DNA of 64,000 bases from a candidate division WOR-3 bacterium. GTDB lineage: Bacteria; Hydrothermota; Tepidihabitantia; Tepidihabitantales; Tepidihabitantaceae. The stretch covers positions 15,960 through 79,959 of the forward strand of contig CBFGJT010000004.1 of NCBI GenBank assembly GCA_965649165.1. Direction: 5' to 3'. The notes beneath the pieces were generated by a model that worked only from the letters and a program-made list of their open reading frames with translations, did not search any database and was not told the DNA's origin. Below, piece by piece: positions 4,256-64,000 of the stretch. The translations under genes and the position numbers were made by a program. Positions within the stretch are counted from its first letter, which is position 1; every line of letters starts with the position of its first letter.

Positions 4256-5035
4256 TTAACCGAATCGACCCGTGATATAGTTCTCGGTTTCCGGACGGTG
4301 GGGACGGGTAAAAATCCGGGATGTAGTGCCAAATTCAATCATTTTCCCCAGAAGCATGAAACCAGTAAAATCAGAAACCCGGGCCGCCTGCTGCATGTTA
4401 TGAGTGACGATTACAATCGTGTATTTTTCTTTGAGCTGCCGGAGCAGGTCTTCAATATGTAGTGTGGCAATCGGATCCAGTGCCGAACAGGGTTCGTCAA
4501 GTAGCAGTACCTCCGGCTCCACCGCCAGCATGCGGGCAATACACAGTCGCTGGCGCTGTTCGTCAGTGAGCCCGAGCGCATTCTGGTCAAGCCGGTCCTT
4601 CAGTTCGTCCCAGAGCCGGACCGCCTGCAAACTCCGTTCCACAATCTCGGTCAGCTTCTGCCGCTGGTTGACTCCGTGCACCCTGGGCCCATAGGCAATA
4701 TTGTCAAATACTGAAAGGGGAAACGCATTCGGCCGTTGAAAGACCATTCCCACCCGCTTGCGCAACTCCAGCACATTCAGCTGATAAATGTTTTTACCGT
4801 CAAGAATAATCTCCCCTCGGATTTTTGCTCCCTCGATCAACTCATTCATCCGATTGAAACTCCGCAGCAGAGTGGATTTACCACACCCGGAAGGACCGAT
4901 GATCGCCGTAATTGCGCGGACAGGAAATTCGATACTGACATCAATGACTGCCTGAAAACTGCCATAAAATACACTGAGATTTTTCGTTGCCAGCTTCACC
5001 GGAGGGTTAACCGATCCTGCCAGAGACATAGTCAT
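4256..5035 (-). CDS. pstB: Phosphate ABC transporter ATP-binding protein PstB, second of two tandem copies in the upstream operon. The probable start is M23 or M25 of the long ORF.
   Basis: …[50 protein letters not shown]…FQRPNAFPLSVFDNIAYGPRVHG…LSGGQ-like LTDEQRQRLCIARMLAVEPEVLLLDEPCSALDP is classic PstB. Confidence 0.85.
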   Translation of the reverse strand: MTMSLAGSVNPPVKLATKNLSVFYGSFQAVIDVSIEFPVRAITAIIGPSGCGKSTLLRSFNRMNELIEGAKIRGEIILDGKNIYQLNVLELRKRVGMVFQRPNAFPLSVFDNIAYGPRVHGVNQRQKLTEIVERSLQAVRLWDELKDRLDQNALGLTDEQRQRLCIARMLAVEPEVLLLDEPCSALDPIATLHIEDLLRQLKEKYTIVIVTHNMQQAARVSDFTGFMLLGKMIEFGTTSRIFTRPHRPETENYITGRFG

Positions 5036-8651: not shown

Positions 8652-9266
8652 ATGAAGCATACAGGACATTTTCGACAGACTGTTCTGCCGATTATCCTTG
8701 CTGCTGCGCTCGGTTTTAGCGCACCAGCGGACCGGTGGCATGCGCTGCGTAACCGGTATCTGGGGCTCAGGTCGCTTGCCGGCAGTTTTACCGAGACGAT
8801 CAAACCGGCTGAGAACACCGGACAAAAACCTCTGATCTTCAAGGGCAGTTTTCTTTTTCAGCTTCCTTACAACTTCCGGCTTGAAGTACAGGAACCGGTG
8901 CGTCAGACAATTGTCGGCAACGATTCGATAGTCTGGTTCTATTTCCCCGACGAACAACGGGCAGTGCGCCAGCAGCGAAATCAGCCTGTGCCTTTACTTG
9001 CATTTGTTGAACCGCTGCTGGACACCAACAGCCGGATCACCGAGAAGGGAACCGGAATAATTATGATTGAAAATGAAAACAGTTTCCTCTCCCCTCTGCT
9101 TTTGGAATTGGACCCCAATGGCACAACCGTCGCCGGACTTTCCTTTACCGACGAACTGGGCAACCAGTGCCGGTTTCTGCTCGCCCGTCAGCGCTGGAAC
9201 CCACCGGTCAGCCGGAAAAGTTTCCGGTTCATTCCGCCGAAGGGGGTAACCGTTGAGTTCCAGTAA
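8652..9266 (+). CDS. LolA-like outer-membrane lipoprotein carrier / sorting protein
   Basis: 204 aa with a cleavable signal peptide. The body is beta-rich and ends …NQCRFLLARQRWNPPVSRKSFRFIPPKGVTVEF, matching the LolA/LppX fold family. Confidence 0.5.
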   Translation: MKHTGHFRQTVLPIILAAALGFSAPADRWHALRNRYLGLRSLAGSFTETIKPAENTGQKPLIFKGSFLFQLPYNFRLEVQEPVRQTIVGNDSIVWFYFPDEQRAVRQQRNQPVPLLAFVEPLLDTNSRITEKGTGIIMIENENSFLSPLLLELDPNGTTVAGLSFTDELGNQCRFLLARQRWNPPVSRKSFRFIPPKGVTVEFQ

Positions 9267-10992: not shown

Positions 10993-11781
10993 ATGATGAA
11001 AGATACGCTTGGGATAGTTACCGTGCTGGCTGCCGGCGGTCTGCTTTTATCCTGCTCTGATGCGCCCCTGATTGAACGTGCGGCAAACCGGATTGTGCTC
11101 GTGGAACTGTTCTCTACTCCTATCGATGAATGAGCCTACTGTGCGTCCGCGGTGCGGGCGCTGGACAGCCTGAGGGGAAGCTATGGTGATTCAATGGCTT
11201 TTGTGATCTACTACGATTCGGAACTTCTGCCTGAACTTTCCTCACCGGCAGGCAAGGTGCGGGCTGATTGGTACGGCGCGGGTGGGGAACGACCACTGGC
11301 ATTCTTTGACGGCACCATCCGCTCACCTCAGATTACGCTGCCTGACTCCTTTTATCCGGTTTATCGGGACATGATTGACGCCGCCCGGGCCAGAAAAACG
11401 ATGATGGAAATGAAAATTGATAGCGCTGTCATCGACTCCTCCTGGCTCACCGTGCGAGTCGTGATTACTCCTACCGATTCTTCTGCCGACACGATTACCA
11501 CCCTGAGCCTGGTGGCAATCGTCTTTGAAGACAGCATACCCTATTATTCAGTCCTGAGAGGCGATACCTTCTATTCACCAATGACCGTGCGCACGGTCAT
11601 TGGTGACAGCTTCGGGATCCCGCTCCGTGTCCGGTTCGGACAGGATTTTGATACTGTTATCAGCACACCGGTTCCGGAATGGAACCCGAACCGCATCGGC
11701 ATAGCGGTAACGGTCCAGAATCTTGCCAGCCGGGCTGTGCTACAAACCGCTGCCAAATGGCGGATAAAACAGGAGGATTGA
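10993..11781 (+). CDS. Candidate selenoprotein: a secreted lipoprotein with a thioredoxin-like U-x-x-C motif, translated through the in-frame TGA at 11131-11133. The ORF track shows only the downstream part, 11152-11781.
   Basis: ATG at 10993 begins a lipoprotein signal peptide (MMKDTLGIVTVLAAGGLLLSC). It reads in frame through TGA into …RIVLVELFSTPIDE-U-AYCASAVRALDSL…. The 3' part has no RBS or signal peptide of its own. A paralog at 17496-18518 has the TGA at the same aligned position. Confidence 0.55.
11143..11161 (+). promoter_or_regulatory. GC-rich hairpin 9 nt downstream of the in-frame UGA; a candidate bacterial SECIS-like element
   Basis: GCGUCCG-CGGUG-CGGGCGC forms a 7 bp stem (one G·U pair) with a 5 nt apical loop containing GGU. 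Confidence 0.3.
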
Positions 11782-12314
11782 TGAAAAAAGTCCTTCCTTT
11801 TGCAGTTGTCTTTCTGTTCTTTACTGTCTTCGGTACCGAAAAAAAGTACGAACCGGCACCGGATTTTACCCTCAGAGATATCAACGGCAATGAAGTAACA
11901 CTCCACGAACTCCTGAAACACGGTCCGGTTTATCTCGAATGTTGGGATCTGTCCTGCGTCAACTGCATTGCCGAACTTGATGCCCTGCTGCCGGTATACG
12001 ATTCACTGAAAGACCGAGGACTGCAGATTGTCGCCCTCTCAGTGGATAAGCCGGCGGACGAGAACCGGGTCCGGGCATTTGTTCGCGCCAAGAAATGGCC
12101 CTATATCGTCCTGCTTGATCAGCAGCAGAGAGTAAAAAAGGCATACAACATTATCATCAAACCCACCGCCTATCTCATCAACATGAACGGCGAAATCGTC
12201 TACACCCATATCGGCTATAAGAAGGGCGACGAAAAACGGATTGCCCAGGAAATGGTAAAATGGCTGCCGCCCCAAGACTCGGTTCCGCCTGAGCAACCGC
12301 CTCAGGGAAAATAG
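11781..12314 (+). CDS. TlpA/ResA-like periplasmic thiol-disulfide oxidoreductase (thioredoxin fold)
   Basis: Signal peptide MKKVLPFAVVFLFFTVFG, then …PDFTLRDINGNEVTLHELLKHGPVYLECWDLSCVNCIAELDAL… with a C-x-x-C active site. AGGAGG lies 4 nt upstream, and the ATG overlaps the upstream TGA stop (TGATG). Confidence 0.7.
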   Translation: MKKVLPFAVVFLFFTVFGTEKKYEPAPDFTLRDINGNEVTLHELLKHGPVYLECWDLSCVNCIAELDALLPVYDSLKDRGLQIVALSVDKPADENRVRAFVRAKKWPYIVLLDQQQRVKKAYNIIIKPTAYLINMNGEIVYTHIGYKKGDEKRIAQEMVKWLPPQDSVPPEQPPQGK

Positions 12315-12324
12315 GCACGCAAAA

Positions 12325-13785
12325 GTGGGCATAGGCAGTTTCTTAGTTCTGAGCTCGGTCTTCGGTGCCAATCTGACAATCCAGGGGGTCAACCGGGCAG
12401 AATTCTGGGCTTACCAGCAGGACTGGGCAACCCATTATGAGGACAAGCTGGAGCTCAATGCCCATTACAGCGATTTCGATGCCGAACTGGGCGTGCTGTG
12501 GTTTGAACCGTCCAAACACGAACCCTCAGTGCGCAAACCGCTCCATCTGCTTGACTACTCAATCGGTTATAACCCGGAAGAACTTGAAGTCCGGCTCGGC
12601 AGATTCTACGTTACATTCGGCCAGGGGCTTACACTAAGCAGCGGTGCTGATGATGATTTCCGGCATTACAAGAGTCTACACGGTCTGTTCGGCAAACTTA
12701 AACTGCCACTGCGCAGTGAGCTAACGCTACTTGGTGGCAGGCTCCGGGATGTCTTTTTTCAGGAAAAAACCTACAAAATAATGAACGAACTGGACACTAC
12801 TGACCAGGTACTTGGTGCTGAGCTGACCATTCGACCGATCCAACTTTTCGGTCTGGGCACCCGTTATGTCCGCATTAACCGGGAGGTCGATCCGACCGCA
12901 CGGGCATTCACCGAACTCTTTGGTGGTGACTGCCGGCTGGATATCGGACCTGTCTCTGCTGGAGCGGAATTTGCCTGGCGGCTGGGGACAAAACCGGGAA
13001 TCGGCGGCCGGGAAACCGGCACGGGCTACATTCTGAATCTGGGCACCGCACTTGCCGGTTTTTCCATCCTCGCACAGTATGTAAACTACCTCCGGCTAGG
13101 TTTTCCTCCAGGCACTTATCACTACAACGACCCCCCCACTCCGATTAAATCCGGCGTCTCAATTAACCGGGGCGTGGATGAACAGGGGTTCGGAGTTCAG
13201 ATCTCAGGAACGATACCTAACGGGCTCTACCTTGAAGCTGATGTGGGTCGTCTTTTTGTCCATGATGACACCAGCGCCGGTGTGTTTGAGGGGGAATTTA
13301 AAACACGGCAATCACTGGGAACAAACTGGACATTTGAACTCAAATTCAACCATATGCTCCAGCGAAACATCGAACTGGGAACTTACGAACGGACTACCGA
13401 CCGTCCGACAATCCTTGTGAACTACCTCACCGGACCCCACACCTTTACTCTCGAGGTGGAACTGGGCTGGGTAACCGAACTGCCCACTGATACCACTCAT
13501 GGCAGCCGCTGGCAGTATCACGAACCCCTGGTTTCTGTCAGTTACGGGCTGGGAGAAAAATGGCTTTTTACCATCGGCTGGCAGGGCGTGGACAGAGATT
13601 CACTCAAGCGTTACGACAACCAGACCTCCTGGCCTGTGTTTGAAACTGTCTATAATCTTAATGAACGGAATGTTCTGCGGCTGCGTATCGGAGCAGAAAA
13701 AGGTGGTTATACCTGCTCAGGTGGTGTGTGCCGCTATGAGGCGCCGTTCCGGGGTATGAAACTGCAACTGATCAGCCGGATATGA
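12325..13785 (+). CDS. Hypothetical secreted beta-rich protein, possibly an outer-membrane beta-barrel
   Basis: 486 aa with alternating hydrophobic/polar segments and Gly/Tyr-rich turns. No recognisable catalytic motif. It follows the thioredoxin gene at a 10 nt gap. Confidence 0.35.
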   Translation: MGIGSFLVLSSVFGANLTIQGVNRAEFWAYQQDWATHYEDKLELNAHYSDFDAELGVLWFEPSKHEPSVRKPLHLLDYSIGYNPEELEVRLGRFYVTFGQGLTLSSGADDDFRHYKSLHGLFGKLKLPLRSELTLLGGRLRDVFFQEKTYKIMNELDTTDQVLGAELTIRPIQLFGLGTRYVRINREVDPTARAFTELFGGDCRLDIGPVSAGAEFAWRLGTKPGIGGRETGTGYILNLGTALAGFSILAQYVNYLRLGFPPGTYHYNDPPTPIKSGVSINRGVDEQGFGVQISGTIPNGLYLEADVGRLFVHDDTSAGVFEGEFKTRQSLGTNWTFELKFNHMLQRNIELGTYERTTDRPTILVNYLTGPHTFTLEVELGWVTELPTDTTHGSRWQYHEPLVSVSYGLGEKWLFTIGWQGVDRDSLKRYDNQTSWPVFETVYNLNERNVLRLRIGAEKGGYTCSGGVCRYEAPFRGMKLQLISRI

Positions 13786-13895
13786 GGCGGAAACTGGTCT
13801 TTGTTCTGCTGGCAATCTGCGGGGCCGCACTTGTAGTGCTGGGCATCGGAATGGGCATGCTCTCAATCATTCACGGCTTTGCTTCCCAGATATGA
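13782..13895 (+). CDS. Small hydrophobic membrane peptide (37 aa), translationally coupled by ATGA to the preceding gene
   Basis: MRRKLVFVLLAICGAALVVLGIGMGMLSIIHGFASQI has a single predicted TM helix. The start ATG overlaps the upstream TGA. Confidence 0.25.
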   Translation: MRRKLVFVLLAICGAALVVLGIGMGMLSIIHGFASQI

Positions 13896-13928
13896 CTTGG
13901 CTGTATGGGTCTCGGGTAGACCTCTAAA

Positions 13929-15209
13929 ATGGTGAAACGACGCATCGCCCCGCATCGCATCGGTCAGATAATCGGCACCGTGCTCCTGAACGGTTATATC
14001 CTTGCCTATCTTCAGAATAAAGTCCTTTATTCCGGAATACTCAAATCGGTACCTGAACCCGTGCTCAACTGTTACGGCGGCCCCCTTTCAGTATTTGCCT
14101 GCCCGCTTGGCTCTTTTCAACAAATCATCGGTATGAAAGGGGTTACCTGGTGGCAGAATATACCCTGGGTGATTCTGGGGCTGTTCATAATAATCGGCGC
14201 ATCTGTCGGTCGGGCGGCTTGCGGCTGGATATGCCCGTTCGGATTGTGGCAGGACCTGCTTTACAAGATTAAAATCGGACCGCGGGCAAAACTGAGCCGA
14301 TGGGTTACCTTCTTGACTATTGCCGGGATCGGCATACTGACTTTAACTCTGCTTGCCACCTTCATCAAAATCTCATTCTGGAAAGGACTGCTACTCGGGT
14401 GGCTGCCGTTTATGGCGTTGCTGCTCTACAGTACAATCAAGGGAAAACTCTCGCCTCCCCAGCGTTTCTCGGTTGCCAGCATGCTGCTGGGAATCCTTCT
14501 CGGTCTCTTAATCATATTCAAGCATGGAGTTAACACCGGCATCGCAACTGGCGTAGTCAACATGGCCGTCTTCAGCCTGCTCGGTGGGAAACGGTCACTG
14601 CTCATCGCCGCTCCAGCCGGTTTTATCATCAGCCTTACCGGTAAATCGGTAATACTCGGCCCTTTTGCCGGAGGGGAAATCGGCTTGCTTTTTATCCTGA
14701 TTGCGGTTTTAACCATTCTGCTCTTTGAAGAAAAATTTAAACTATTCCTCCCGGCAACTGCCCTCAAATATGCCTTTCTCGTCATCGTTGCCGGCATCGC
14801 CGCCTACTTCACTGCCGAACCTTGGTTCTGCAAACTGTGTCCTCAGGGCACCCTCGAAGCGGGTCTCCCGCTTGTGCTGTGGGACCCGGTCCAGGGTCTG
14901 CGGGCACTTGTCGGCTGGCTCTTTTATCTGAAAATTGCCATTCTTTTATTTGTCTTCTGGGCATCAATTACCGTCAAACGCCCCTTCTGCCGCATGGTCT
15001 GCCCGATCGGTGCGATTTATGCCCTGTTCAACAAAGCCAGTATGATGCGGATGGAGCTGAACGGACAAAATTGCAGTAAATGCGGAGCCTGCCGCCGGGT
15101 CTGTCCCATGGACATCGAGCCGTTCCAGGATCCGAATCAGGCAGAATGCATCCGGTGTTTTGAGTGTGTCTGGATCTGTTCGCGAAAATCGTTGAAAATT
15201 ACTTTCTGA
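13929..15209 (+). CDS. Polytopic membrane protein with 4Fe-4S ferredoxin-type clusters, of the NapH/MauN/CcoG-like polyferredoxin family
   Basis: Repeated cysteine motifs CGWICPFG, CKLCPQG, CRMVCPIG, CSKCGACRRVCP and CIRCFECVWIC are interspersed with TM helices. Confidence 0.6.
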   Translation: MVKRRIAPHRIGQIIGTVLLNGYILAYLQNKVLYSGILKSVPEPVLNCYGGPLSVFACPLGSFQQIIGMKGVTWWQNIPWVILGLFIIIGASVGRAACGWICPFGLWQDLLYKIKIGPRAKLSRWVTFLTIAGIGILTLTLLATFIKISFWKGLLLGWLPFMALLLYSTIKGKLSPPQRFSVASMLLGILLGLLIIFKHGVNTGIATGVVNMAVFSLLGGKRSLLIAAPAGFIISLTGKSVILGPFAGGEIGLLFILIAVLTILLFEEKFKLFLPATALKYAFLVIVAGIAAYFTAEPWFCKLCPQGTLEAGLPLVLWDPVQGLRALVGWLFYLKIAILLFVFWASITVKRPFCRMVCPIGAIYALFNKASMMRMELNGQNCSKCGACRRVCPMDIEPFQDPNQAECIRCFECVWICSRKSLKITF

Positions 15210-15210
15210 A

Positions 15211-16089
15211 GTGCGCAAACCCGAATGGCTCAGATTCCGGCTGCCCGCCGGCCCGGAATTTATCCGGGTAAATGAAGTCCTTAGGAAATATAACTTGAAT
15301 ACTGTCTGCAGTTCTGCCCGCTGTCCAAATCTGGCTGAATGCTGGAACCGGGGGACAGCAACAGTTTTGCTTCTCGGCAACACCTGCACCCGGCATTGTC
15401 GTTTCTGCGCCGTTACCACCAGTAACCCTCATGGTCAGGTAGATAATTCTGAACCCGAACGGGTGAAAGGCGCAGTCCTGGAGCTGGGCCTTAAATATGT
15501 CGTCCTGACTTCGGTCGATCGTGATGACCTGCCTGACCTTGGTGCCGGTATCTTTACCCGCACCGTGCAGCTGCTGAAAAAGTCAAACCCGGGAATCGCG
15601 GTTGAGGTGCTGGTTCCTGATTTCCAGGGGAAAAAGGAGTTGATTCAGCAGGTGCTTGCTGCCGGTCCGGATGTGTTTGCCCACAACCTTGAGACCGTGG
15701 AGCGGTTGACCCCTGCTGTCCGCGACCCGCGGGCAGATTACCGCCAGTCGCTTTCGGTCCTCCAGTTGGCAAAAAGGCTGACACCGACAATCAAAACCAA
15801 AAGCGGTCTAATGGTCGGACTGGGCGAAACCGAAGAGGAAGTCATCCAGACGCTCGCTGACCTAAAATCAGCAGGATGTGATATTGTGACCATTGGCCAG
15901 TATCTCCAGCCGGACCGACGCTGCCTGCCAGTTGCTCGTTACTACACCCGAGAGGAGCTTCAGAAACTGTCAGCGTATGCCCGCACCATCGGCATCCCGC
16001 AAACCATTGCTGCCCCGCTGGTCCGAAGCTCCTATCTGGCTGAGGAACTACTCAGGACAGATATCAACCCTACCCCTACACAGATTTGA
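15211..16089 (+). CDS. lipA: Lipoyl synthase LipA
   Basis: MRKPEWLR…, N-terminal auxiliary-cluster cysteines (C…CPN…C) and radical-SAM motif CTRHCRFC, then …LTSVDRDDLPD… and …DIVTIGQYLQP…, typical of LipA. Confidence 0.85.
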   Translation: MRKPEWLRFRLPAGPEFIRVNEVLRKYNLNTVCSSARCPNLAECWNRGTATVLLLGNTCTRHCRFCAVTTSNPHGQVDNSEPERVKGAVLELGLKYVVLTSVDRDDLPDLGAGIFTRTVQLLKKSNPGIAVEVLVPDFQGKKELIQQVLAAGPDVFAHNLETVERLTPAVRDPRADYRQSLSVLQLAKRLTPTIKTKSGLMVGLGETEEEVIQTLADLKSAGCDIVTIGQYLQPDRRCLPVARYYTREELQKLSAYARTIGIPQTIAAPLVRSSYLAEELLRTDINPTPTQI

Positions 16090-17453
16090 ACCGTCTCTCC
16101 ACCTGCGAAATCGAAAAAGGGTTGAAAATTTCGATCATTGAAGGCACCTTTGCCACTCTCTATACAACCCTTGCCGGCGGTATGTTTCTTGCCGGACTAG
16201 CTCTGCACCTCGGGGCAAATTCATTTCAGATTGCACTTCTATCTGCCATCCCGGCGCTGGTCAGTGGTTTCAGTTTTCTTGCCGGCTACCTGGTGCGCTG
16301 GGTCGGTGCTCGAAAACCGCTGGTTCTCTGGACCGCAGGTGTCGGCCGATCAGTCTATGTACTGATTGTCCTCGCTTTGCTACTCCGCTTCCGGCTGCGG
16401 ATTGAACTTTTCCTGCTGATTGTCGGCATCTCCGCCGTGCTGTTGGCAATCGCCGGCACGGTCTGGACATCCTGGATCAGTGACCTCGTGCCTGAGGAAC
16501 ACCGCGGTCGTTTCTTTGGTGTCCGGAATGCAATTCTCAATTTCAGCGGTGTGCTGGTTGCATTTGGTGCGGGCCGGAGTATGGACTATCTTAAAGCCCG
16601 GGGGCACGAAACCACCGGCTACCTGCTGGCATTTACACTCGCAGTGCTGTTCGGCATGGTCTCAACGCTGCTCCTGCGCCGGCAGCCCGAACCCGAACCG
16701 AGACTCCTGCCAGGACCCTCGTTCCGGGAAATTTTTTTTGGCCCACTCCAGGAACCGCAGTTCCGGCGGCTGACAATCTTCCTCGCAATCTGGTTCCTCA
16801 CCGGCACGCTCGCATCACCCTTTTACCTCGTCCATCTCTTGAAAAATCTCCGTTTCAGCTTTACCGAAGTGGCAATTTATTCCATGATTGGTGGAGTAAT
16901 CGGCGTCCTGTTCCAACTGTTCTGGGGCCGAGCGATCGATCGATTCGGCTCCCGACCGGTTACTGTGCTCAACTTTGCCCTCGTGGGAATAATGCCTTTT
17001 CTCTGGCTCTTCGCCACCCCCCGCTTCCGCCTGCCAATCTGGATTGATGGCGTCCTCAATGGTGCGGTCTGGACCGGCGCCAGCCTCGGCCTCTGGAACC
17101 TGCTGCTTGACCTTGCCGATAATCCTGCCCGCAAAGAGAGCTACTTTGCAATCTACAGTGTCGTCACCGGTCTCGGTGCCTTTATTGCCTCCATTATTGC
17201 CGGCACCATCGCCCAGCTGATCTCCAGCTTCCATTTGAAAATCCTGGGCATCGATTTTTATAATTACGACGTTATGTTCCTTGCTGCCGGCGTCGCCCGG
17301 TTTACCTGTCTGCCGCTACTGCTGAAGGTCCGGGAGCCGGGCAGTAAGCCGGTGCGGCACACAATTCAAGAACTAACCAATCTGGCACTGTGGCGCCTGA
17401 ATGCCGGTAAGGATGTCCTGCTGCAGGCACTGGGAATCAAAAATCAGGATTGA
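16086..17453 (+). CDS. MFS-family transporter
   Basis: 455 aa with 12 predicted TM helices. The start overlaps the lipA stop. Confidence 0.6.
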   Translation: MNRLSTCEIEKGLKISIIEGTFATLYTTLAGGMFLAGLALHLGANSFQIALLSAIPALVSGFSFLAGYLVRWVGARKPLVLWTAGVGRSVYVLIVLALLLRFRLRIELFLLIVGISAVLLAIAGTVWTSWISDLVPEEHRGRFFGVRNAILNFSGVLVAFGAGRSMDYLKARGHETTGYLLAFTLAVLFGMVSTLLLRRQPEPEPRLLPGPSFREIFFGPLQEPQFRRLTIFLAIWFLTGTLASPFYLVHLLKNLRFSFTEVAIYSMIGGVIGVLFQLFWGRAIDRFGSRPVTVLNFALVGIMPFLWLFATPRFRLPIWIDGVLNGAVWTGASLGLWNLLLDLADNPARKESYFAIYSVVTGLGAFIASIIAGTIAQLISSFHLKILGIDFYNYDVMFLAAGVARFTCLPLLLKVREPGSKPVRHTIQELTNLALWRLNAGKDVLLQALGIKNQD

Positions 17454-17495: not shown

Positions 17496-18518
17496 GTGCT
17501 GAAGCAACTGTTCGTCCTTTCCCTGGTGCTCACCGCTACTCTGGCAGTGGGTTACCAGCGAATCGTCGTCCTGGAGGAAGCCTATTCTGAAGGCTGAGCC
17601 AGCTGCGCACCTGCCAGTCGGGCAGTTGATCAGATCACCTACGATTATGCCGGTTATGTTGTTGCCGTCGAGTGGCATGTATCATCCTCATATCCCCTGT
17701 ACTCTGCCGAAGGCCGCGGTAAATGGTTCATGTATCCCGGGCCCTACAATGGATCCTATGCAACCCCCTGGCTCTGGGTTGACGGCCGGCAGCGCGGTTA
17801 CAACTACAACCTCTGGGCAAGCTATGTTGCGGCCCAGATCGGCATTCCGACTCCGGTTCAGATCACCCTGACCGGCAATTACAACCAGACCACCCGCGAG
17901 GGCACAATCAAAGCGCTTATTCAGAATGATTCGACCGACGAGCTGACAATGCGTGTTTCGGTTGTAGTAACTGAAGACTCAATTTACTACTCCGCACCCA
18001 ATGGTGACCAGTGGCATAATCATGTCTGCCGTGATTACATTCCTAATCAGTACGGCACGGTAATTACCGTTCCTGCCGGTAGTATTGATTCGGTAATTCA
18101 ACCCTTTACGATCGCCAGCACCTGGAATGAACAACGCTGTAAAATTGTGGTTTATGCCCAGAGTACAACAATGGTACCATCCGACTCATCCTATCCTGCC
18201 TACCAAGGAGCAGAAATTGCAATCCTTGACCTCGTCGGCGTCCGTGAAGGTGTACCGGCTGAAGGCATGGCAGCACATGCACTGCCTCTTGTCAATCCGA
18301 CTTCAGCCCGGCCCGTTTTTGCCGTGACCGCCAACACCGGAGCGCAGTATCAGCTTTACATCTACACGTTTGACGGCCGCATATCCCATGCTCAAAATGG
18401 CACAATATCAGGTGACTGCAGAATTGCTGTCAACAGCCGACTTTCCCGCGGCATCTACCTCTATCGGCTTAAGATTAATGGGACTGAGTTCAAAGGCAAA
18501 CTGATCGTCACCGATTAA
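17496..18518 (+). CDS. Candidate selenoprotein paralog: a secreted U-x-x-C protein with a T9SS C-terminal sorting domain, translated through the in-frame TGA at 17595-17597. The ORF track lists only 17730-18518.
   Basis: GTG start 5 nt after AAAGGAGG gives the signal peptide VLKQLFVLSLVLTATLAVG, in frame with …RIVVLEEAYSEG-U-ASCAPASRAVDQI…. This is homologous before and after the TGA to the 10993-11781 gene (also …SVVVTEDSIYYS… vs …VAIVFEDSIPYYS…, WNEQR vs WNPNR). The C-terminus …YLYRLKINGTEFKGKLIVTD is a Por/T9SS sorting domain. Confidence 0.55.
17611..17625 (+). promoter_or_regulatory. Hairpin 13 nt downstream of the in-frame UGA; a candidate SECIS-like element
   Basis: CUGCC-AGUCG-GGCAG forms a 5 bp GC-rich stem with a 5 nt loop containing GU. 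Confidence 0.25.
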
Positions 18519-24230: not shown

Positions 24231-26333
24231 CTAATTCAGCCGCAGAACCTTAGTCTCAACCATGCCATCCGGAGTAGAAACCTTCAGAAAATACACACCA
24301 CGATTCAAACCTTGGGGCTGCCACAAATAACTGCCGCTTCCCGGTGCAACATCAAACTCCACCTGCTCAACCCGTCGGCCTGATGCATCAAAAGCTTCAA
24401 ACCTCATCCTGCCTGCAATTCCCGCATGATAATATATCCGGGTCCGGCGTCCAAACGGATTAGGAGAAACCCGGAACTTCAACGGCTCTACTACCGCCGG
24501 TACCTCCGCCAATCCCACATTGGCATTATACCACACCTGCGCCGCATCCGCATTTGCCCGCAACCCGTTCTCATCACTGCCACCTACCACCGCCACCGCT
24601 AGCCGGGCACTTCCTCCCGGATTGATATCAAACGGTCCGGCAGAGGTAACGATTGACCAGTCATAGGGCCGGTTGGAGCTCCGCTGGACGATTGTGCCGT
24701 TCAAAAAGCGCCACTTCATATTTTCGGTCATTGCGGTATCCGGATAGACATAAATCGCATGATCCACCAGGCTCAGATTCCGGAAACTGGCAGGCTCCAG
24801 AATTCTCACCCCCACTGTCGGATTGGCGCCCGACGCCTGCCGCATATACACCAGTCGGCGCACGGTGTCGGCGGCACCTTGATTGGTTGTGGGCGAGGAA
24901 CCGATGTCAAAATCCATAAACAGACCGGCATACAAACCGTTAACCGCACTGGAGCCCTGATTCTGGATGTCATAGACAATGACGATAAAGTCATCAAACG
25001 AGGGGTCGGCACTCATATAACTATGCTGAACCACCCGCAGGCTCTTGGGACGGGGATGAGCCGCGTCAGAGAAGCTGGCGTAAAAATGCTCATCACCGAC
25101 ACCCGGCGGCACAGTCGCCCGCAGCGACTCCACCGCCACTAGATCCGAATTGATCTGGCTTGCCGGCCGGCCATAATACCGGTCTGCAACATAACCGGTA
25201 TCGGTCCCCATCACAAATGAGCCGTAATAGAGGGCGCTGGCGGCTGTCTTCGGATAGCGGAACCCGGAACCGGCATCCGCCGGAGCATCATACCCCACCG
25301 GACCAAAACAGGAGACCGTCAGCCGGCAGTAACCGGTATCATGATCCATCAACGCAAACACATTGGCAATACTCGTCGTCTGCCATGAGGTGTCATTCGC
25401 CCGGTTAAGGTCACCACTCAGGTCGGTAAACATCGTGACAGTATAACTTGCACCTCCTGGACCGGTATGCCATACCGGAAAAGTTACATCGGTCCGAGAA
25501 CCAGGCTGAATTGCACTCGTTACGGTCACAATCTCATTATATACCCTCACCGCTCCGGAATCGATCCAGCAGTAAACCTGAAAGTTACTCTCCGCATTCG
25601 TGCCATAATTGACCACCCGGGCAACGGGCTGATAACTACCCGGACCAACATTCGGCTCCGGCACCAGAATTCTTGACACGCCCACATCATGTGCCAGCCC
25701 TGGAATCCGGCTGATAACGGCTCTGATATTCCAGTTGTAATTTAACCCCTGGTCTGCCAGCTGGCGCCAAGATGTGCGGTTATTGGAGAGGAACCCACCC
25801 CGGTTGCGCACCATCGGTCCGGCATCGCACCCGATCGGATATCTCCCTGCAGTATGTGTCAACCGCACACAGGCCCAGAAATCGCTTCCCGCCGGCAATA
25901 CCAGCGGCGGATTGAGATCAATCCGCTTCCAGCGCATCGAGTCCGCACCACTGTAGGGAACCGATTCCAGCACCGCCCCAGGGGTAGTATCATTACCTTC
26001 CGCAAAAATATATGCATAATCGTTGCTGGAGTTGTGCCACTGATAGAAGAGAATCGCCTTAAGCGTGCAGGCACTCGTCGGGGTAAAACGCGCCGCTGAA
26101 TAGAAGGTGCCGCCACTGGTTAGCCCTACACCAGTATAAGGTACACCATCAAAATGGAGAGTTTCATCAGCAAAGAAATCGACCGCTGGCGATTCGTTGT
26201 TACTCACTGCTGGGGTCAGCATTTCCTCAGATCGGCTCAAAAGTGGAGCCGGCCCGGCCTGCGTCACCGGCAGCGCACCCCAGGCAAGTGCAATAACCAC
26301 TGTCAGACCAGCTACGACCGACAACAGCCTCAT
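24231..26333 (-). CDS. Large secreted protein with a T9SS C-terminal sorting domain; function unknown
   Basis: Signal peptide MRLLSVVAGLTVVIALAWG. The C-terminus …SPNPFGRRTRIYYHAGIAGRMRFEAFDASGRRV…GVYFLKVSTPDGMVETKVLRLN is a Por-secretion tail. Confidence 0.6.
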   Translation of the reverse strand: MRLLSVVAGLTVVIALAWGALPVTQAGPAPLLSRSEEMLTPAVSNNESPAVDFFADETLHFDGVPYTGVGLTSGGTFYSAARFTPTSACTLKAILFYQWHNSSNDYAYIFAEGNDTTPGAVLESVPYSGADSMRWKRIDLNPPLVLPAGSDFWACVRLTHTAGRYPIGCDAGPMVRNRGGFLSNNRTSWRQLADQGLNYNWNIRAVISRIPGLAHDVGVSRILVPEPNVGPGSYQPVARVVNYGTNAESNFQVYCWIDSGAVRVYNEIVTVTSAIQPGSRTDVTFPVWHTGPGGASYTVTMFTDLSGDLNRANDTSWQTTSIANVFALMDHDTGYCRLTVSCFGPVGYDAPADAGSGFRYPKTAASALYYGSFVMGTDTGYVADRYYGRPASQINSDLVAVESLRATVPPGVGDEHFYASFSDAAHPRPKSLRVVQHSYMSADPSFDDFIVIVYDIQNQGSSAVNGLYAGLFMDFDIGSSPTTNQGAADTVRRLVYMRQASGANPTVGVRILEPASFRNLSLVDHAIYVYPDTAMTENMKWRFLNGTIVQRSSNRPYDWSIVTSAGPFDINPGGSARLAVAVVGGSDENGLRANADAAQVWYNANVGLAEVPAVVEPLKFRVSPNPFGRRTRIYYHAGIAGRMRFEAFDASGRRVEQVEFDVAPGSGSYLWQPQGLNRGVYFLKVSTPDGMVETKVLRLN

Positions 26334-27579: not shown

Positions 27580-29700
27580 CTACTGTCCACGGTTCACCAG
27601 TGCCAGCCGCTCGGTAATAATCCCCTGCCCACTGTTTGCAACTACCAGATAAATACCACTCCCGGTCTTATCCGGGACCCAGTATGCCCTGCCCAGCCCC
27701 GGACTCACCGGCAGTTCTGCAACCGGCATTCCGCTCAAAGTGTAAACCCTTACCCGGGCATCGCTGGGTAGACCGGCAACTACCACTCCCCTGTGAACCC
27801 CAAAAACAAACGGATTCGGAAAAATCTTCAACCCCTGGGCAACCGAATCCGGCTCCGGTGCATAAGAAAAAACTGAGACACCCCGGGCGGTCCCGATCAC
27901 CGCAACCCCCTGTTCATCATCAAGGGCGAGTGCGGTATAAAAACCGGTCAGACTCTGGGAGTTGGGTAGCAGTCCGCTGTTCTGGGCAGTATAATTCGTC
28001 CAGCTCCCGGTTGCATCATCAAAAATTGACAGCCCCTGGTCAGATAGAAACCACACCCGCCCCCCGCCGTCAACCCGCACCCGGTAAAGGTTATTGGACA
28101 ACAACCGGCTGTTACTTGTAGTATAAACCTGAAACCTGCTTCCGTCCCACATTGCCCCCCCCTGCGGTGTTGCCACCCATACCCGGTCCTGAGGATCAAC
28201 CGCAACTGATCGCACCTCACTTGCCGGCAGCCCTTCGCTGTGCAGAGCATGCCGGTCATCTCCGGGATAAAACAGCGTTCCATTATAGTCGAACTCCTCA
28301 AGCCCGTTGGTCAACCCGACCCACACCCGATTCCGGGAATCAAAGGCAAACTCATAATTGCCCCCTGGTGGTGGCACCAGCTCTGGCAGATAAAACTCCG
28401 CCTCCCTGCCCAACGAATCGATTGCGATAACCGAACCGCTTTTGTTAAACACCCATTTGGTATCATTACGGTCCAACCCGAACGCCTGAACCACATTCCG
28501 ATCCCCGGACCCCAGCTGTCGACTCCCCCAGGTATCAGCCTCTGGATCATAAACACTCAACCCGCCCGGATAGAAATGGCTGAACCAAATCCTTCCCCGC
28601 GAATCGCATCGCGCCTGCACCGCCCAGCTCAGGGGAGAAAGAATAATCTGCACTGAACTGTCCGGCTTAATCCGGGAGATGTAGGAACTGTGGTGCCCGA
28701 CATAAATACTCCCGTCTTTCCCCAAGGCACAGTCGCTCACCATTCCCGAGGCAACGCCGTTAAAATAGTAACTTTCCCAGGACTGACCGCTCCGCAGATA
28801 CCGCAAGCCCAGCCCCCACTCATCATTTCCTCCCAGCCCGGCCCACAAAACCGCACCGGCACACAGACAACGAATGTCACCCAGCAGCAGCGGTACCATC
28901 ATCCCGGCGCTGTCAACCTGAAACAGCGTATCCGCGGTTGCAAGATAGATACTGTTGCCCGTAACTGCCAGATCCCGGACCGCCTTTGCCTGCGCGAATG
29001 TCACTATCGGCACCAGCCTGCCGGTATCTCCAACCACTAGCCCCTGCTCAGTACCGGCAACAATCCGGCCATCGGACAGCAGGGCGATGGCACTCACTGA
29101 ATCCCCCAGCGGTCGGCGAAAGGCGCGCCAGCGGCTGAACTCCTGATCAACCTGCGTCAATCCCTGATTAGTTCCGATCCAGTAACCGTCAGAGCTGACC
29201 GCAATCGCCAGCACCCGGTCACTCAAAAGCTCCCGCACCCGGGCAAAATTGTAATGCTCAACCCGGTCATCCTCAAAATTCAACGGTGAACCCCGCATCT
29301 CAACAACATACAAGCCCTGCTCAGTGCCGAGCAACACCCGCTCAGAATCAACCACCACCGCCCGGATCCGCAGTGGCAGTTCACCGGCGCGATACAGCCG
29401 GGCACGGACCGAATCGGCGGGGATAACCGCCAGTCCGGCACCATCGGTTCCAACCCAGAGATTACGCTCCCGATCCCGGGCAATACAGAGACAACGATTC
29501 ACCCCCAGTCCGTCTGTATGGTAGAAATGGTGCCAGACCCTGATCTCCGGTTTTGTCTCCAAAATTACCACCCCGCCCAGGGTTGCCGCATTCAGTATCG
29601 AATCATCACCGCACAGATCAGCGACAAAATTACTGTTGGTAAATGTCTGCCAGCCACCAGGTGCAGCGGACAGGAGCAACATAATTGCCAAACTCATCAT
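27580..29700 (-). CDS. Secreted beta-propeller protein with a T9SS C-terminal sorting domain; the repeats resemble the two-component-regulator-propeller type
   Basis: Signal peptide MMSLAIMLLLSAAPG. Repeated …W(F/I/V)GT..GL… propeller blades. The C-terminus …KIFPNPFVFGVHRGVVVAG…VRVYTLSGMPV… is a Por-secretion tail. Confidence 0.6.
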   Translation of the reverse strand: MMSLAIMLLLSAAPGGWQTFTNSNFVADLCGDDSILNAATLGGVVILETKPEIRVWHHFYHTDGLGVNRCLCIARDRERNLWVGTDGAGLAVIPADSVRARLYRAGELPLRIRAVVVDSERVLLGTEQGLYVVEMRGSPLNFEDDRVEHYNFARVRELLSDRVLAIAVSSDGYWIGTNQGLTQVDQEFSRWRAFRRPLGDSVSAIALLSDGRIVAGTEQGLVVGDTGRLVPIVTFAQAKAVRDLAVTGNSIYLATADTLFQVDSAGMMVPLLLGDIRCLCAGAVLWAGLGGNDEWGLGLRYLRSGQSWESYYFNGVASGMVSDCALGKDGSIYVGHHSSYISRIKPDSSVQIILSPLSWAVQARCDSRGRIWFSHFYPGGLSVYDPEADTWGSRQLGSGDRNVVQAFGLDRNDTKWVFNKSGSVIAIDSLGREAEFYLPELVPPPGGNYEFAFDSRNRVWVGLTNGLEEFDYNGTLFYPGDDRHALHSEGLPASEVRSVAVDPQDRVWVATPQGGAMWDGSRFQVYTTSNSRLLSNNLYRVRVDGGGRVWFLSDQGLSIFDDATGSWTNYTAQNSGLLPNSQSLTGFYTALALDDEQGVAVIGTARGVSVFSYAPEPDSVAQGLKIFPNPFVFGVHRGVVVAGLPSDARVRVYTLSGMPVAELPVSPGLGRAYWVPDKTGSGIYLVVANSGQGIITERLALVNRGQ

Positions 29701-40105: not shown

Positions 40106-41731
40106 ATGAAAAAATATCTATTGTTATCGTGTCTGGTGATGCTGGCTCCGATTTTCTCCGAGGAAGGAGCAAGATATCTGATAATCAGCACTGACGCCCT
40201 CGCCCCAATCGTTCAACCGCTGGCTGAATGGAAGCACTATTCCGGAATGCAGTGCAGGGTGGCAAAGCTGTCGGAAATTGGTGGCGCAGATACGAACGCA
40301 ATTAAAAACTATATCCGCAACGCCTATAACAACTGGCCGGTCCGGCCGGAATATGTTCTACTGGTCGGTTCACCCAGCGCCCTGCCGGCGCGGTTTTACC
40401 GTGTTCAGCAGCAATACGGTTATTATTCCGACAATATTTACGGCGATATCAATGGTGACCTTTACATGGACATTCCGGTCGGAAGATTCCCGGCCAAGTC
40501 TGCCCGGCAGTGCAGTGTCATGGTCTTTAAAACCCTTGCCTACGAAAAAAACCCGGACCTAACCGACAGCCTCTGGATGCGCAGACTTACTACCGTTATC
40601 AGAGAAAACCAGGATTCAGATGATACGATTTACTGGAATGATATCCGCATTGCTGCAACCTTGGCTGGAAACAATAACTTTGTCAGCTGCGACTCACTCT
40701 CCAGGTTGCGTGGTGATGACGCCAATGATGTTGTCAACTCCGTAACCAACGGCACCGCCATGGTACTTTACCGCGGCACTGCAGTGAGTAACTGGTATGA
40801 GCCATTTGTTGTTAACCCGGCATTAACCGGCAATGGCAAAAAACTGCCGATCATCCTTTCTATCACCTGCGAAACTATGACTCTGGCACCGGGTGAATCG
40901 ATGGTCGGTGATGCGTGGATTAAGGCGGGAACACCAACAAGCCTTAAAGGGGCGGTCGCCTTCTTCGGCAACACCCACTCCCTTGCCTCCAGCAACCTCA
41001 CCGTACGCAAACGGAGTGCGGTCGCCCGGGCATTTTTTAAAGCGGTTTTTCAGGAAAATAAACACATCCTCGGCAAGGCGATGATTCGGGCAAAGGACTC
41101 ACTCTACCGTGCATTTGCCGATGTGGCTGAATACCGCGGGTTCAATCTGCTGGGCGATCCGGCACTGGACATCTGGACCGACACCCCAAGACATCCGGAT
41201 GTGGAGCATCCGGCAGAAATTCCGCCCGGACAACAGGAATTCCCGGTTTTTGTTTACCTCAACAGCCAGCCAGTTCCTAACGCCCTGGTCTGCGTCTCAA
41301 TGGACACAACGGTATATGAATATGGCTACACCGATAACTCCGGACTGGTGGTATTCAACATCAACCCGCCCGACACCGGCAGTCTCCGGCTGGTAGTTAC
41401 CGGGCACAACCTTTATCCCTATGACACGCTGATACCGGTCCGACTCACCGCCGTTACCGAAGAGCCTCCGGTCTCCAGAACCGGCAATCTGACCGCCATT
41501 CCGGGCACATTTATCAGCGCTACCCGATTTTTCTGGGTGCCAGCAGAAACACCCGCCGATATCACCATTCACGATGCGAGCGGCAGACCGGTCACCGAAA
41601 TCATTAATGCCCACAGCGGAGTTAACTGGGATGGCACCGACCGGAATGGCAGAAAATGTGCTGCAGGTATCTATATCTGCCGACTCAACAACTCACCCGC
41701 AACCGCAATCAAACTGTTAAAACTGAGATAA
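40106..41731 (+). CDS. C25-family (gingipain-like) cysteine peptidase with a T9SS C-terminal sorting domain
   Basis: Signal peptide MKKYLLLSCLVMLAPIFS. …YVLLVGSPSALP… and …FFGNTH…ILSITCETM… give a His/Cys catalytic arrangement like C25. The C-terminus …RFFWVPAETPADITIHDASGRPV…GIYICRLNN…IKLLKLR is a Por-secretion tail. Confidence 0.55.
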   Translation: MKKYLLLSCLVMLAPIFSEEGARYLIISTDALAPIVQPLAEWKHYSGMQCRVAKLSEIGGADTNAIKNYIRNAYNNWPVRPEYVLLVGSPSALPARFYRVQQQYGYYSDNIYGDINGDLYMDIPVGRFPAKSARQCSVMVFKTLAYEKNPDLTDSLWMRRLTTVIRENQDSDDTIYWNDIRIAATLAGNNNFVSCDSLSRLRGDDANDVVNSVTNGTAMVLYRGTAVSNWYEPFVVNPALTGNGKKLPIILSITCETMTLAPGESMVGDAWIKAGTPTSLKGAVAFFGNTHSLASSNLTVRKRSAVARAFFKAVFQENKHILGKAMIRAKDSLYRAFADVAEYRGFNLLGDPALDIWTDTPRHPDVEHPAEIPPGQQEFPVFVYLNSQPVPNALVCVSMDTTVYEYGYTDNSGLVVFNINPPDTGSLRLVVTGHNLYPYDTLIPVRLTAVTEEPPVSRTGNLTAIPGTFISATRFFWVPAETPADITIHDASGRPVTEIINAHSGVNWDGTDRNGRKCAAGIYICRLNNSPATAIKLLKLR

Positions 41732-61149: not shown

Positions 61150-61926
61150 GTGATCCGCAGCTGTAGGTGGAGCGTGCTCGGGGTTCTGCTTATCATATTA
61201 ACCCCAGGCCGATCGCAGCTGAACCTCAGGCAGAACATCACCGACCGCCCGCTTCTTCGGCTGGAAATTGCTCCGGATCAGAACGACCAGCTGCAAACCG
61301 GCGAAAAAAAGAACTACCGCTTCTTTGTTAATCTGTCGGGGGATTCCGGTTCAATTGTTGAAATTCTGCCGCCTTTTTTGCCTGCCGGCTGGACCGGCCA
61401 GTTATACGATTCGGCAAACGCCTTGCTACTGACTGACGATGACCGGGACGGCATCCCCGAACTCGGGTTTGTCAGTCCGGACCGACCGCACTATTTCACG
61501 CTCCAGATTGGAACTCCGACTGACTTGATCGGCGACACCGGAAACCTGGATAGCGCCGTAGTAGTCATTACCGCATTTCTTGATAACGACAGCCTTGTCC
61601 GGGACAGTGCCCGGTTGAATATCAGACTTATTCCGGGATTACTGATTCACAACTTCCCCAATCCTCTTGACAACCGGACCACATTTGTCATCGGTATCCC
61701 GGATAATGGCGAAGTTAGTCTGTTCATCTTCAATCGCGCTGGCGAACGCATCGCTACTATTCTGCAGCACGAACCCCTTACTGCCGGTGTCCATCCGGTC
61801 AGCTGGAACACACGGAATGACCGCAACCAGCCGGTTGCTTCCGGAACTTATGATTACCTTTTAGAATGGAAACAGGGAGAAAGGATTCACCGGATAAAGA
61901 AAAAACTGGTGGTCAACCGCCGATGA
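61150..61926 (+). CDS. Secreted protein with a T9SS C-terminal sorting domain
   Basis: C-terminus …IHNFPNPLDNRTTFVIGIPDNGEVSLFIFNRAGERIATIL…SGTYDYLLEWKQ…. Confidence 0.55.
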   Translation: MIRSCRWSVLGVLLIILTPGRSQLNLRQNITDRPLLRLEIAPDQNDQLQTGEKKNYRFFVNLSGDSGSIVEILPPFLPAGWTGQLYDSANALLLTDDDRDGIPELGFVSPDRPHYFTLQIGTPTDLIGDTGNLDSAVVVITAFLDNDSLVRDSARLNIRLIPGLLIHNFPNPLDNRTTFVIGIPDNGEVSLFIFNRAGERIATILQHEPLTAGVHPVSWNTRNDRNQPVASGTYDYLLEWKQGERIHRIKKKLVVNRR

Positions 61927-63332: not shown

Positions 63333-64000
63333 CTAATCTTGGACTAGCAGCACCTTGCTAACTTCCACCCGATTATTAACCGGTCTGACGAAATAAACCC
63401 CAGCTGACACCAGTCTGCCCTGCCGGTCTCTTCCGTCCCAGCGGGAATCACTACCCCTCAGCTCCCGCACCAGTCTGCCTTGAAGGTCATAAATCCGGAC
63501 GCCATCAGCACCTGTAACGGTCATCACAGTTCCCAGTCGGCAGGGATTGGGATAAACCGCCAACCCTCGCTTAAACCCGACCCCCTGTGCCTCCTGAATG
63601 CCCAGAATTCTGGCAAGCAGCCGTTCCGCCCACCAACACCGCAGTGCCAGCTCGGTTGTATCTCTGCCCTGTGGACCCTGCCCCTGAGCACCGTAGGGTG
63701 AGGCGATTACCGCAAAGTAAAAAGTTACCTCGCCGCCTGCCGGAAGATCTATAGGTCCGACTGCCAGCAATGCCCGTTTATCTCCCGGCTCAGAATCAAG
63801 GGAATCATAAGGCTCATACTCGCCCGTTCGGTAATTATAGCCTTTAAGCGTCAGATACTGATCCGCATCCCGCACCGGATCAATCTCAATTGAAAACCGC
63901 TTGAATGCGCTCAAGTTAAGGCCATTGGGCGCCATTAATAGCCGGACCGCTACTGCGCCCGGAGTTCCCGAATCCCAGACCGAACTGGGTGTCTCAATAT
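63333..64000 (-). CDS. Secreted protein with a T9SS C-terminal sorting domain; the N-terminus lies beyond the window's 3' edge
   Basis: C-terminus …LAVYPNPCRLGTVMTVTGADGVRIYDLQGRLV…GVYFVRPVNNRVEVSKVLLVQD. The reading frame stays open to position 64000. Confidence 0.55.
   Translation of the reverse strand, partial: IETPSSVWDSGTPGAVAVRLLMAPNGLNLSAFKRFSIEIDPVRDADQYLTLKGYNYRTGEYEPYDSLDSEPGDKRALLAVGPIDLPAGGEVTFYFAVIASPYGAQGQGPQGRDTTELALRCWWAERLLARILGIQEAQGVGFKRGLAVYPNPCRLGTVMTVTGADGVRIYDLQGRLVRELRGSDSRWDGRDRQGRLVSAGVYFVRPVNNRVEVSKVLLVQD

Follow-up and report, generated by a model that had tools for sequence, protein, structure and literature searches.

A gene at positions 10993-11781 (forward strand) of a 64-kb stretch of DNA from a candidate division WOR-3 bacterium, hereafter referred to as the window, is very probably a genuine selenoprotein gene, in which the UGA codon at 11131 would be recoded as selenocysteine (Sec). 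This reading is put forward because two protein families carry different hairpins resembling selenocysteine insertion sequences (SECIS), because Sec/Cys pairs are found, and because the arrangement is conserved over some 93 loci. The 10993-11781 gene and its orthologs constitute family 1, and a paralogous gene at 17496-18518, on the same strand, belongs to family 2. The selenoprotein reading had been proposed in a preliminary description of the window, and the sequence tests reported here support it, but the novelty assumed at that stage did not stand, as proteins of this type are already described under NF045500/GOS_C.

Reading frame and predicted protein

Read from the ATG at 10993, one frame runs through TGA 11131-11133 to a TGA stop at 11779-11781, and encodes a family-1 precursor of 262 amino acids (aa), Sec counted. 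The open reading frame (ORF) finder reports only a 209-aa 3' piece, starting from a GTG at 11152. The preliminary description had claimed that the frame crosses the TGA into this ORF, and the same frame is indeed open to 11781. It had also placed a lipoprotein signal peptide at the ATG, which was found at 10993-11055 (MMKDTLGIVTVLAAGGLLLSC, followed by SDAP), with the lipobox LLSC and the codon of Cys21 at 11053-11055. The in-frame TGA lies in the context ...RIVLVELFSTPIDE-[TGA]-AYCASAVRALDSL... (…STPIDE-U-AYC…), where it would encode Sec47, the first residue of a U-A-Y-C redox motif, and the resolving Cys50 of this U-x-x-C (codon 11140-11142) is invariant among all orthologs in the alignment. 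The predicted architecture consists of a thioredoxin-like N-terminal domain, followed by an Omp28-type beta-sandwich. The terminator of the gene is the very codon, TGA, that it would also read as Sec 216 codons earlier. This stop overlaps the ATG of the downstream redoxin gene (TGATG, 11779-11783), which suggests translational coupling.

Elsewhere in the window, TGA is a true stop, in agreement with the earlier description: it terminates 15 of the 46 open frames of at least 250 codons, including those of ValRS, LipA, the DUF6029 gene, and the 10993-11781 gene. Because TGA stops many genes of the window, a reassigned genetic code is excluded. In a six-frame scan of the 64 kb, the codons at 11131 and 17595 were the only credible in-frame TGAs with open flanks, the remaining candidates being out-of-frame noise. 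One of the rejected candidates, a U-T-A-C motif at 7117 (reverse strand), sits in a chance-open extension upstream of a pst permease gene. The FmdE genes located upstream in two of the related loci (L006/L007) were also checked for a hidden TGA, and none was found.

Conservation around the TGA in family 1

The family-1 set comprises 14 distinct orthologous loci from WOR-3 metagenome-assembled genomes (MAGs), with 57-92% aa identity. Its closest relatives were found in MAGs that bear the label candidate division WOR-3; for example, JBDRTY010000001.1 (935 kb) shows 92% aa identity, and synteny over the 20.6 kb retrieved around the gene. The TGA is found at the same codon in 14/14 loci, within LVELFST(P/L)xDE-U-xYCASA, and a lipoprotein signal, with [LFIV]x[STGNAC]C followed by S[DE]AP, lies upstream of it in all 14. 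Within the signal region, aa identity is down to 30%, a variability expected of signal peptides. The 25 codons extending from the lipobox Cys to the TGA constitute the best-conserved stretch of the protein, with 83% aa identity. Over this stretch, pairwise differences at codon positions 1/2/3 amount to 0.11/0.10/0.50, and, judging from this pattern, the segment upstream of the TGA is clearly translated in the frame of the gene.

The public gene calls, which split the locus into an ORF of 45-55 aa and another of 195-210 aa, could suggest two separate genes, one for a 46-aa lipopeptide that would stop at TGA 11133, the other for a protein of ~200 aa with an initiation of its own. In protein databases, 19/19 close homologs cover just 55-79% of the query (74-79% for 18 of them) and begin after the TGA. 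Nevertheless, the called starts of the 3' pieces differ among orthologs, being internal codons that yield products of 194-210 aa, and no start is conserved, which argues against a genuine internal start. Moreover, the downstream piece alone would miss beta-strand 1 of the thioredoxin fold, together with its first redox residue, the homologs with Cys in place of Sec are single continuous proteins, and the frame is always kept across the TGA. Two separately functional genes, an outcome that the preliminary description had named as refuting the selenoprotein reading, were looked for among the orthologs and never seen: 14/14 family-1 and 79/79 family-2 loci keep the TGA, and their in-frame flanks are conserved. 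The two-gene arrangement is, thus, very improbable, and a single recoded gene is retained in what follows.

The paralogous gene and family 2

The paralog at 17496-18518 had been reported to carry a TGA at the aligned codon, and this TGA was found at 17595-17597 in …YSEG-U-ASC… (context ...RIVVLEEAYSEG-[TGA]-ASCAPAS...), where it would encode Sec34. The predicted protein begins with an ordinary signal peptide, not of the lipoprotein type, followed by a thioredoxin-like domain with Sec34-A-S-Cys37, an Omp28 beta-sandwich, and a putative C-terminal sorting domain of the type IX secretion system (T9SS) at about 18294-18509. This last assignment relies on TIGR04183 (23.9 bits, for a cutoff of 23) and on Pfam Por_Secre_tail (18.6 vs 27); in addition, the family-2 profile matches the C-terminal domains of PorU and PG93. 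The 10993-11781 protein is devoid of such a sorting domain. The paralog is, therefore, probably a redox module fused to a T9SS sorting domain and displayed at the cell surface.

All of the 79 analysable metagenome loci of family 2 (37-89% identity) show a TGA at the aligned codon, within the motif R-V-V-V-x-E-E-A-Y-x-E-x-U-x-[ST]-C, with a signal peptide upstream. A protein search with family 2 returned 91 matches, nearly all of which lack their N-terminal part; 'Omp28-related outer membrane protein [candidate division WOR-3 bacterium]' is the name given to many of them. On these alignments, the conservation of the TGA at the loci of both families lies far beyond chance. The TGA could also be taken for the lesion of a pseudogene, or for an error made during sequencing or assembly of the contig. 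This would account for the bare presence of a stop codon and nothing more, and its probability is negligible: independent assemblies of 14 and 79 loci, issued from many samples and assemblers, show the same TGA, and purifying selection is visible on both of its sides.

Cysteine-containing homologs

Homologs containing Cys at the position of the TGA, which had been suggested as a check of the selenoprotein reading, were sought, and in both families C-x-x-C falls exactly on U-x-x-C. For family 1, P0020 and P0021 (30-33% identity) are full-length proteins in which …ANRIVLAEFFTFAR-C-VYC… aligns onto U-AYC. For family 2, P0050 and P0052 (43-45% identity), also full-length, carry …VVLEEAYSE[VT]-C-DGC…, aligned onto the U-ASC of the paralog. 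The tblastn alignment obtained with P0020 runs unbroken from 10996 to 11754 through TGA 11131, and that obtained with P0050 runs unbroken from 17502 to 18515 through TGA 17595. A UGA aligned with the catalytic Cys of a C-x-x-C motif constitutes a classic Sec/Cys pair.

SECIS-like hairpins

In family 1, a SECIS-like hairpin is located at 11139-11168 (+), that is, from +9 to +38 counted from the U of the UGA. It is composed of a 4-bp lower stem, a 3-nt bulge, and an 8-bp upper stem (11143-11150/11154-11161), capped by the apical loop GGU (11151-11153). The upper stem, GCGUCCGC/GCGGGCGC, begins 9 nt past the TGA and counts 8 or 7 bp, depending on whether the C-G pair that closes the triloop is included or not. 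The 7-bp GC-rich hairpin with a GGU loop previously noticed at this distance is, hence, present, and the 4-bp lower stem is added to it. Across the 14 sequences, 97.6% of the cells are paired. Double changes were observed at two pairs, one replacing C-G by U-A in three sequences (a synonymous Ser change plus an Arg to Gln change) and the other replacing U-A by C-G in one ortholog (L004). Synonymous differences reach their gene-wide minimum, 0.18 vs 0.49 overall, in the two 9-codon windows whose first codons are at -2 and +1 from the TGA, which is what an RNA element embedded in a coding sequence predicts.

The hairpin of family 2 differs in sequence. Its consensus, CCAGC(A)-GUG-(U)GCUGG, extends from +20 to +34, is 93.2% paired in 66 distinct sequences, and contains an invariant G in the loop. 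At pair 30-36, CG occurs in 53 sequences, UA in 12, and UG in one, with no case of disruption; at another pair, 29 sequences have AU and 14 have GC. Codon choice within the stem is constrained as well, Ser being always encoded by AGY, and Leu by CUG in 62/66 sequences (UUG once, while three sequences encode Val). The window paralog, L018, L042, and CP070680.1 do not form this consensus hairpin (columns 26-40 of alignment A6), and a different one, of 5 bp, is found 3 nt upstream of it. In the window, this hairpin is CUGCC-AGUCG-GGCAG (17611-17625, +), whose loop contains GU at positions +23/+24 relative to the U of the UGA. Among the sequences with the shifted register, a compensatory change from U-A to C-G is seen (L042, CP070680.1), and the stem seems to have migrated within family 2. 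A candidate long-range stem of family 2, GGUCC/GGACC (A6 columns 11-15 with 39-43), was rejected, being 68.8% paired and no better than shuffles.

The SECIS element of Escherichia coli fdhF is a hairpin located just 3' of the UGA, with G23/U24 in its apical loop. The hairpins described here are also located directly 3' of the UGA, inside the coding sequence. In family 1, their apical G(G)U occupies +21 to +23; in family 2, the G/U of the consensus is at +26/+27, and the GU of the window paralog at +23/+24. However, their sequences are unrelated to that of fdhF, and no bulged U is evident.

Predicted fold and relationship to known proteins

AlphaFold2 models were built for the Cys homologs P0020 and P0050 with the family alignments, these proteins standing in for those of the window. 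The P0020 model (pLDDT 85, pTM 0.82) shows the succession beta1, C-x-x-C at the N-terminus of alpha1, beta2, alpha2, beta3, beta4, and alpha3, which corresponds to a thioredoxin fold, followed by a beta-sandwich. The P0050 model (pLDDT 85) comprises a thioredoxin fold, a beta-sandwich, and the sandwich of a C-terminal sorting domain. The preliminary description had placed the TGA in the U-x-x-C of a thioredoxin-fold redox site, and the models of the Cys homologs show a thioredoxin-like fold around the motif.

For both models, the best match in the PDB is HBP35 (5y1a; Foldseek E 2e-12), with an alignment extending over the full length and TM-scores of 0.76 for P0020 and 0.53-0.57 for P0050, followed by Atu2684/DUF1223 (2axo) and then by the Omp28 domain (2r2c). 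A profile search of PDB sequences did not retrieve 5y1a at E<=1. Because sequence searches fail to reach HBP35, the relationship suggested by the models is at the fold level. HBP35 is a surface-located T9SS cargo of Porphyromonas gingivalis (PMC2907840, PMC3120885). Thanks to its C48-x-Y-C51 motif, it reduces insulin with an activity above that of E. coli thioredoxin, which is lost in C48S/C51S, and it complements an E. coli dsbA mutant (PMC2907840). Like the paralog, HBP35 combines a thioredoxin domain, a beta-sandwich, and a T9SS C-terminal domain, and its motif is C-x-Y-C. It nevertheless contains Cys instead of Sec, the family-1 protein is a lipoprotein without T9SS domain, and the hemin binding and heme-acquisition role of HBP35 are not to be assumed for the window proteins.

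A related family already described is NCBIfam NF045500, 'Omp28-related selenoprotein'. Its hidden Markov model aligns, weakly, over the whole thioredoxin and Omp28 region of both window proteins: the 10993-11781 protein scores 19.1 bits (E 7e-4) and the paralog 43.7 bits (E 2e-11), for a cutoff of 200 bits. NF045500 corresponds to 'Hypothetical protein GOS_C', listed with U-x-x-C and one Sec in a 2026 review of the prokaryotic selenoproteome (PMC13188914 Table 1). In the 2008 GOS paper of Zhang & Gladyshev, GOS_C was described with a Trx-like fold, 74 Sec and 312 Cys sequences, and no assigned function (PMC2398784). The window proteins resemble it as predicted selenoproteins with U-x-x-C in a thioredoxin-like fold, many Cys homologs, a SECIS-like hairpin past the UGA, and a presumed thiol redox function. 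They differ from it in that they fall under the 200-bit cutoff, hence outside that equivalog, and in that they originate from WOR-3 MAGs, whereas GOS_C came from ocean-surface GOS reads. In addition, the published description of GOS_C mentions neither a lipoprotein in a redox operon nor a T9SS cargo form.

Other similarities involve Omp28 and DUF1223. On Pfam Omp28 (PF11551; cutoff 34.9), the paralog scores 48.6 bits and P0020 50.3, and the 10993-11781 protein gives no match; the family-1 profile matches 2r2c (Omp28) at E 0.002. The scores on NCBIfam NF033782 are 17.1 for 10993-11781 and 54.8 for the paralog, under the 150-bit cutoff. What is shared with the Omp28 family (PF11551, NF033782, 2r2c) is a probably homologous C-terminal beta-sandwich and, for family 1, the lipoprotein signal. 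DUF1223 (PF06764; Atu2684, 2axo) presents a thioredoxin-like module with C-x-x-C and gives a weak Pfam match at the redox motif of the paralog, although this match scores 24.1 vs a threshold of 30.7 and is confined to the N-terminal motif region.

Exported U-x-x-C selenoproteins with a thioredoxin fold are known, such as the DsbA-like, DsbG-like, TlpA-like, and thiol:disulfide interchange proteins (PMC13188914 Table 1), as are lipoprotein-type selenoproteins, in the SAO system (bioRxiv 10.1101/2022.07.06.499078). All of these selenoproteins nevertheless belong to other families, whose descriptions include neither an Omp28 sandwich nor a T9SS sorting domain. Literature searches returned no description of the two WOR-3 subfamilies, in lipoprotein or T9SS form, and nothing relevant linking Omp28 with selenoproteins or selenocysteine, or WOR-3 with selenocysteine, and no paper mentioning the accessions was retrieved. 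The kind of protein is, thus, already known (Omp28-related U-x-x-C selenoproteins from ocean metagenomes), and the two WOR-3 subfamilies are new.

Genomic context

In all ortholog loci, the family-1 gene is directly followed by a gene encoding an exported thiol-disulfide oxidoreductase of the ResA/TlpA type (11781-12314, +; AhpC-TSA/Redoxin, with LSCVNC). Then come a 486-aa DUF6029 protein (12325-13785, +), for which an outer-membrane beta-barrel is a guess, a NapH/MauN-like polytopic membrane 4Fe-4S ferredoxin (13929-15209, +; Fer4_5), the lipoyl synthase LipA (15211-16089, +), and, as the last gene of the conserved block, a major facilitator superfamily (MFS) transporter (16086-17453, +). 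The order redoxin, DUF6029, NapH-like, LipA, and MFS is kept in every ortholog locus downstream of the family-1 gene. Since the sequence on the upstream side varies, the conserved block starts with the selenoprotein gene. The 11781-17453 block is also found in L001, L004, L006, L008, L009, and L099. The family-2 gene comes after the MFS gene in the window and in the nearer relatives, the two Sec paralogs flanking the block.

Between the DUF6029 and NapH-like genes lies a conserved 37-aa ORF (13782-13895, +), MRRK…GMLSIIHGFASQI (MRRKLVFVLLAICGAALVVLGIGMGMLSIIHGFASQI), with a single membrane helix. Its ATG overlaps the DUF6029 stop, it is called as a gene in L002, L005, L006, and L008, and the C-terminus GML[ST][IV]IHGFA[SA]QI is kept in these four loci. 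It probably encodes a small membrane subunit of the operon, with a single helix.

In the complete WOR-3 genome CP070680.1 (L099), an Omp28-like fragment is followed by redoxin, DUF6029, Fer4_5, and radical SAM genes, and the family-2 gene with its TGA comes directly after the radical SAM gene. A run of N at about 4610-4708 interrupts the apparent family-1-type Omp28 gene of this genome (C-terminal fragment …TEDS…), which makes it unreadable whether TGA or TGC is present. Some 1.7 kb before the Sec-lipoprotein gene, a gene for a LolA-like lipoprotein chaperone (8652-9266, +) is present in the window, as it is in L001/L004; since it is absent from L006-L009, its proximity is probably coincidental.

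T9SS-type C-terminal sorting domains also end several large secreted proteins of the window, encoded at 24231-26333 (-), 27580-29700 (-), 40106-41731 (+), 61150-61926 (+), and 63333-63935 (-). A tblastn search with the C-terminal domain of P0050 matched 63336-63623 (E 2e-4) and, with marginal E values of about 0.05, 41555-41707 and 27592-27819. Cargo proteins of the T9SS appear to be numerous in this WOR-3 genome.

Proposed mechanism and function

According to the mechanism proposed here, the hairpin at 11139-11168 would act as a bacterial SECIS, and UGA 11131 would be read as Sec, presumably via SelB-GTP-Sec-tRNA(Sec) binding, as the conservation pattern suggests. The product would be exported and lipidated at Cys21, and would present Sec47-Ala-Tyr-Cys50 at the N-terminus of helix 1 of its thioredoxin fold, ahead of the Omp28-type beta-sandwich. 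Sec would then be the attacking nucleophile in an extracytoplasmic selenol/thiol-disulfide oxidoreductase. Such an activity of the family-1 product is a reasonably probable assignment, and it matches that of a Cys-based structural relative, HBP35, whose thioredoxin activity has been measured.

The operon context suggests an extracytoplasmic redox relay. Electrons might be transferred from the membrane Fe-S protein to the periplasmic redoxin, then to the Sec proteins, and finally to an oxidised substrate, either periplasmic or external. The Sec proteins would, in this case, be terminal or intermediate oxidoreductases of an envelope redox pathway. A more ambitious version, which we regard as rather unlikely, would make of the whole block an undescribed Se-dependent extracytoplasmic electron relay of WOR-3, ending in a surface selenoprotein displayed by the T9SS. 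The relay would reduce an external or periplasmic oxidised substrate such as polysulfide/S0, a metalloid, or protein disulfides, and the lipoate made by LipA might serve as dithiol shuttle. To our knowledge, no selenoprotein was known before as a T9SS cargo, and the paralog would be the first, if this is true.

Weighing the selenocysteine reading

Several points weigh against the reading set out above, or against some of its parts. Neither selA, selB, and selD, nor tRNA-Sec, for which ARAGORN was used, were found in the 64-kb window or in 46 related loci, the source genome beyond the window not having been searched. The folding energy of the family-1 hairpin is no better than that of dinucleotide shuffles (z -1.2 to +0.3), and it is not used as evidence because it does not exceed that of shuffled GC-rich sequence. 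The structural case, consequently, consists of conservation and covariation, in which the compensatory changes represent few events. No Rfam SECIS family was detected by a gathering search of the whole window, and permissive searches of 11100-11220 and 17565-17685 yielded noise. This null result is expected, because bacterial SECIS elements are, as far as is known, short and particular to each gene family. The fold attributed to the window proteins is deduced from homologs at 30-44% identity. The gene encoding P0020 is located outside the redoxin/DUF6029 operon, among other Omp28/T9SS genes, and adjoins a ferredoxin-thioredoxin-reductase-like gene. Lastly, the electron-relay model and its substrate are speculative.

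Beside the P0020 point, it can be mentioned that a FeThRed_B gene was observed in L098 (CBFGJP010000111.1, 1607-5609), FeThRed_B being a family with known Sec forms.

The lack of visible Sec machinery in the window and related loci, together with a short hairpin of unremarkable energy, would suit a read-through of the UGA without Sec. In this scenario, a suppressor or near-cognate tRNA would insert Trp, Cys, Gly, or Arg, and the role of the hairpin would be limited to slowing the ribosome or stimulating read-through. Such a scenario is improbable, however, as the UGA aligns with the catalytic Cys of the homologs' C-x-x-C, and as the position of the hairpin and its G-containing apical loop fit a bacterial SECIS in two families of differing sequence. 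Furthermore, the related NF045500/GOS_C is an accepted predicted selenoprotein, and a general suppression would be costly, given that TGA terminates many genes of the window. Decoding of UGA 11131 as Sec is, thus, the interpretation adopted here.

Implications for WOR-3 and for the protein superfamily

More than 100 database entries of the two WOR-3 families ('hypothetical protein', 'Omp28-related outer membrane protein') are truncated because the Sec codon has been taken as a stop. Corrected models bring back the signal peptide, strand 1, and the catalytic residue. The finding leaves knowledge of Sec decoding itself unchanged. It indicates that WOR-3, a phylum of which we know no cultured member, decodes selenocysteine, and that its selenoproteins reach the envelope and, probably, the cell surface. 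The tight linkage to the redoxin/NapH-like ferredoxin/DUF6029 operon also offers a testable functional context for the Omp28/GOS_C/HBP35-like superfamily, which has been functionally unassigned since 2008.

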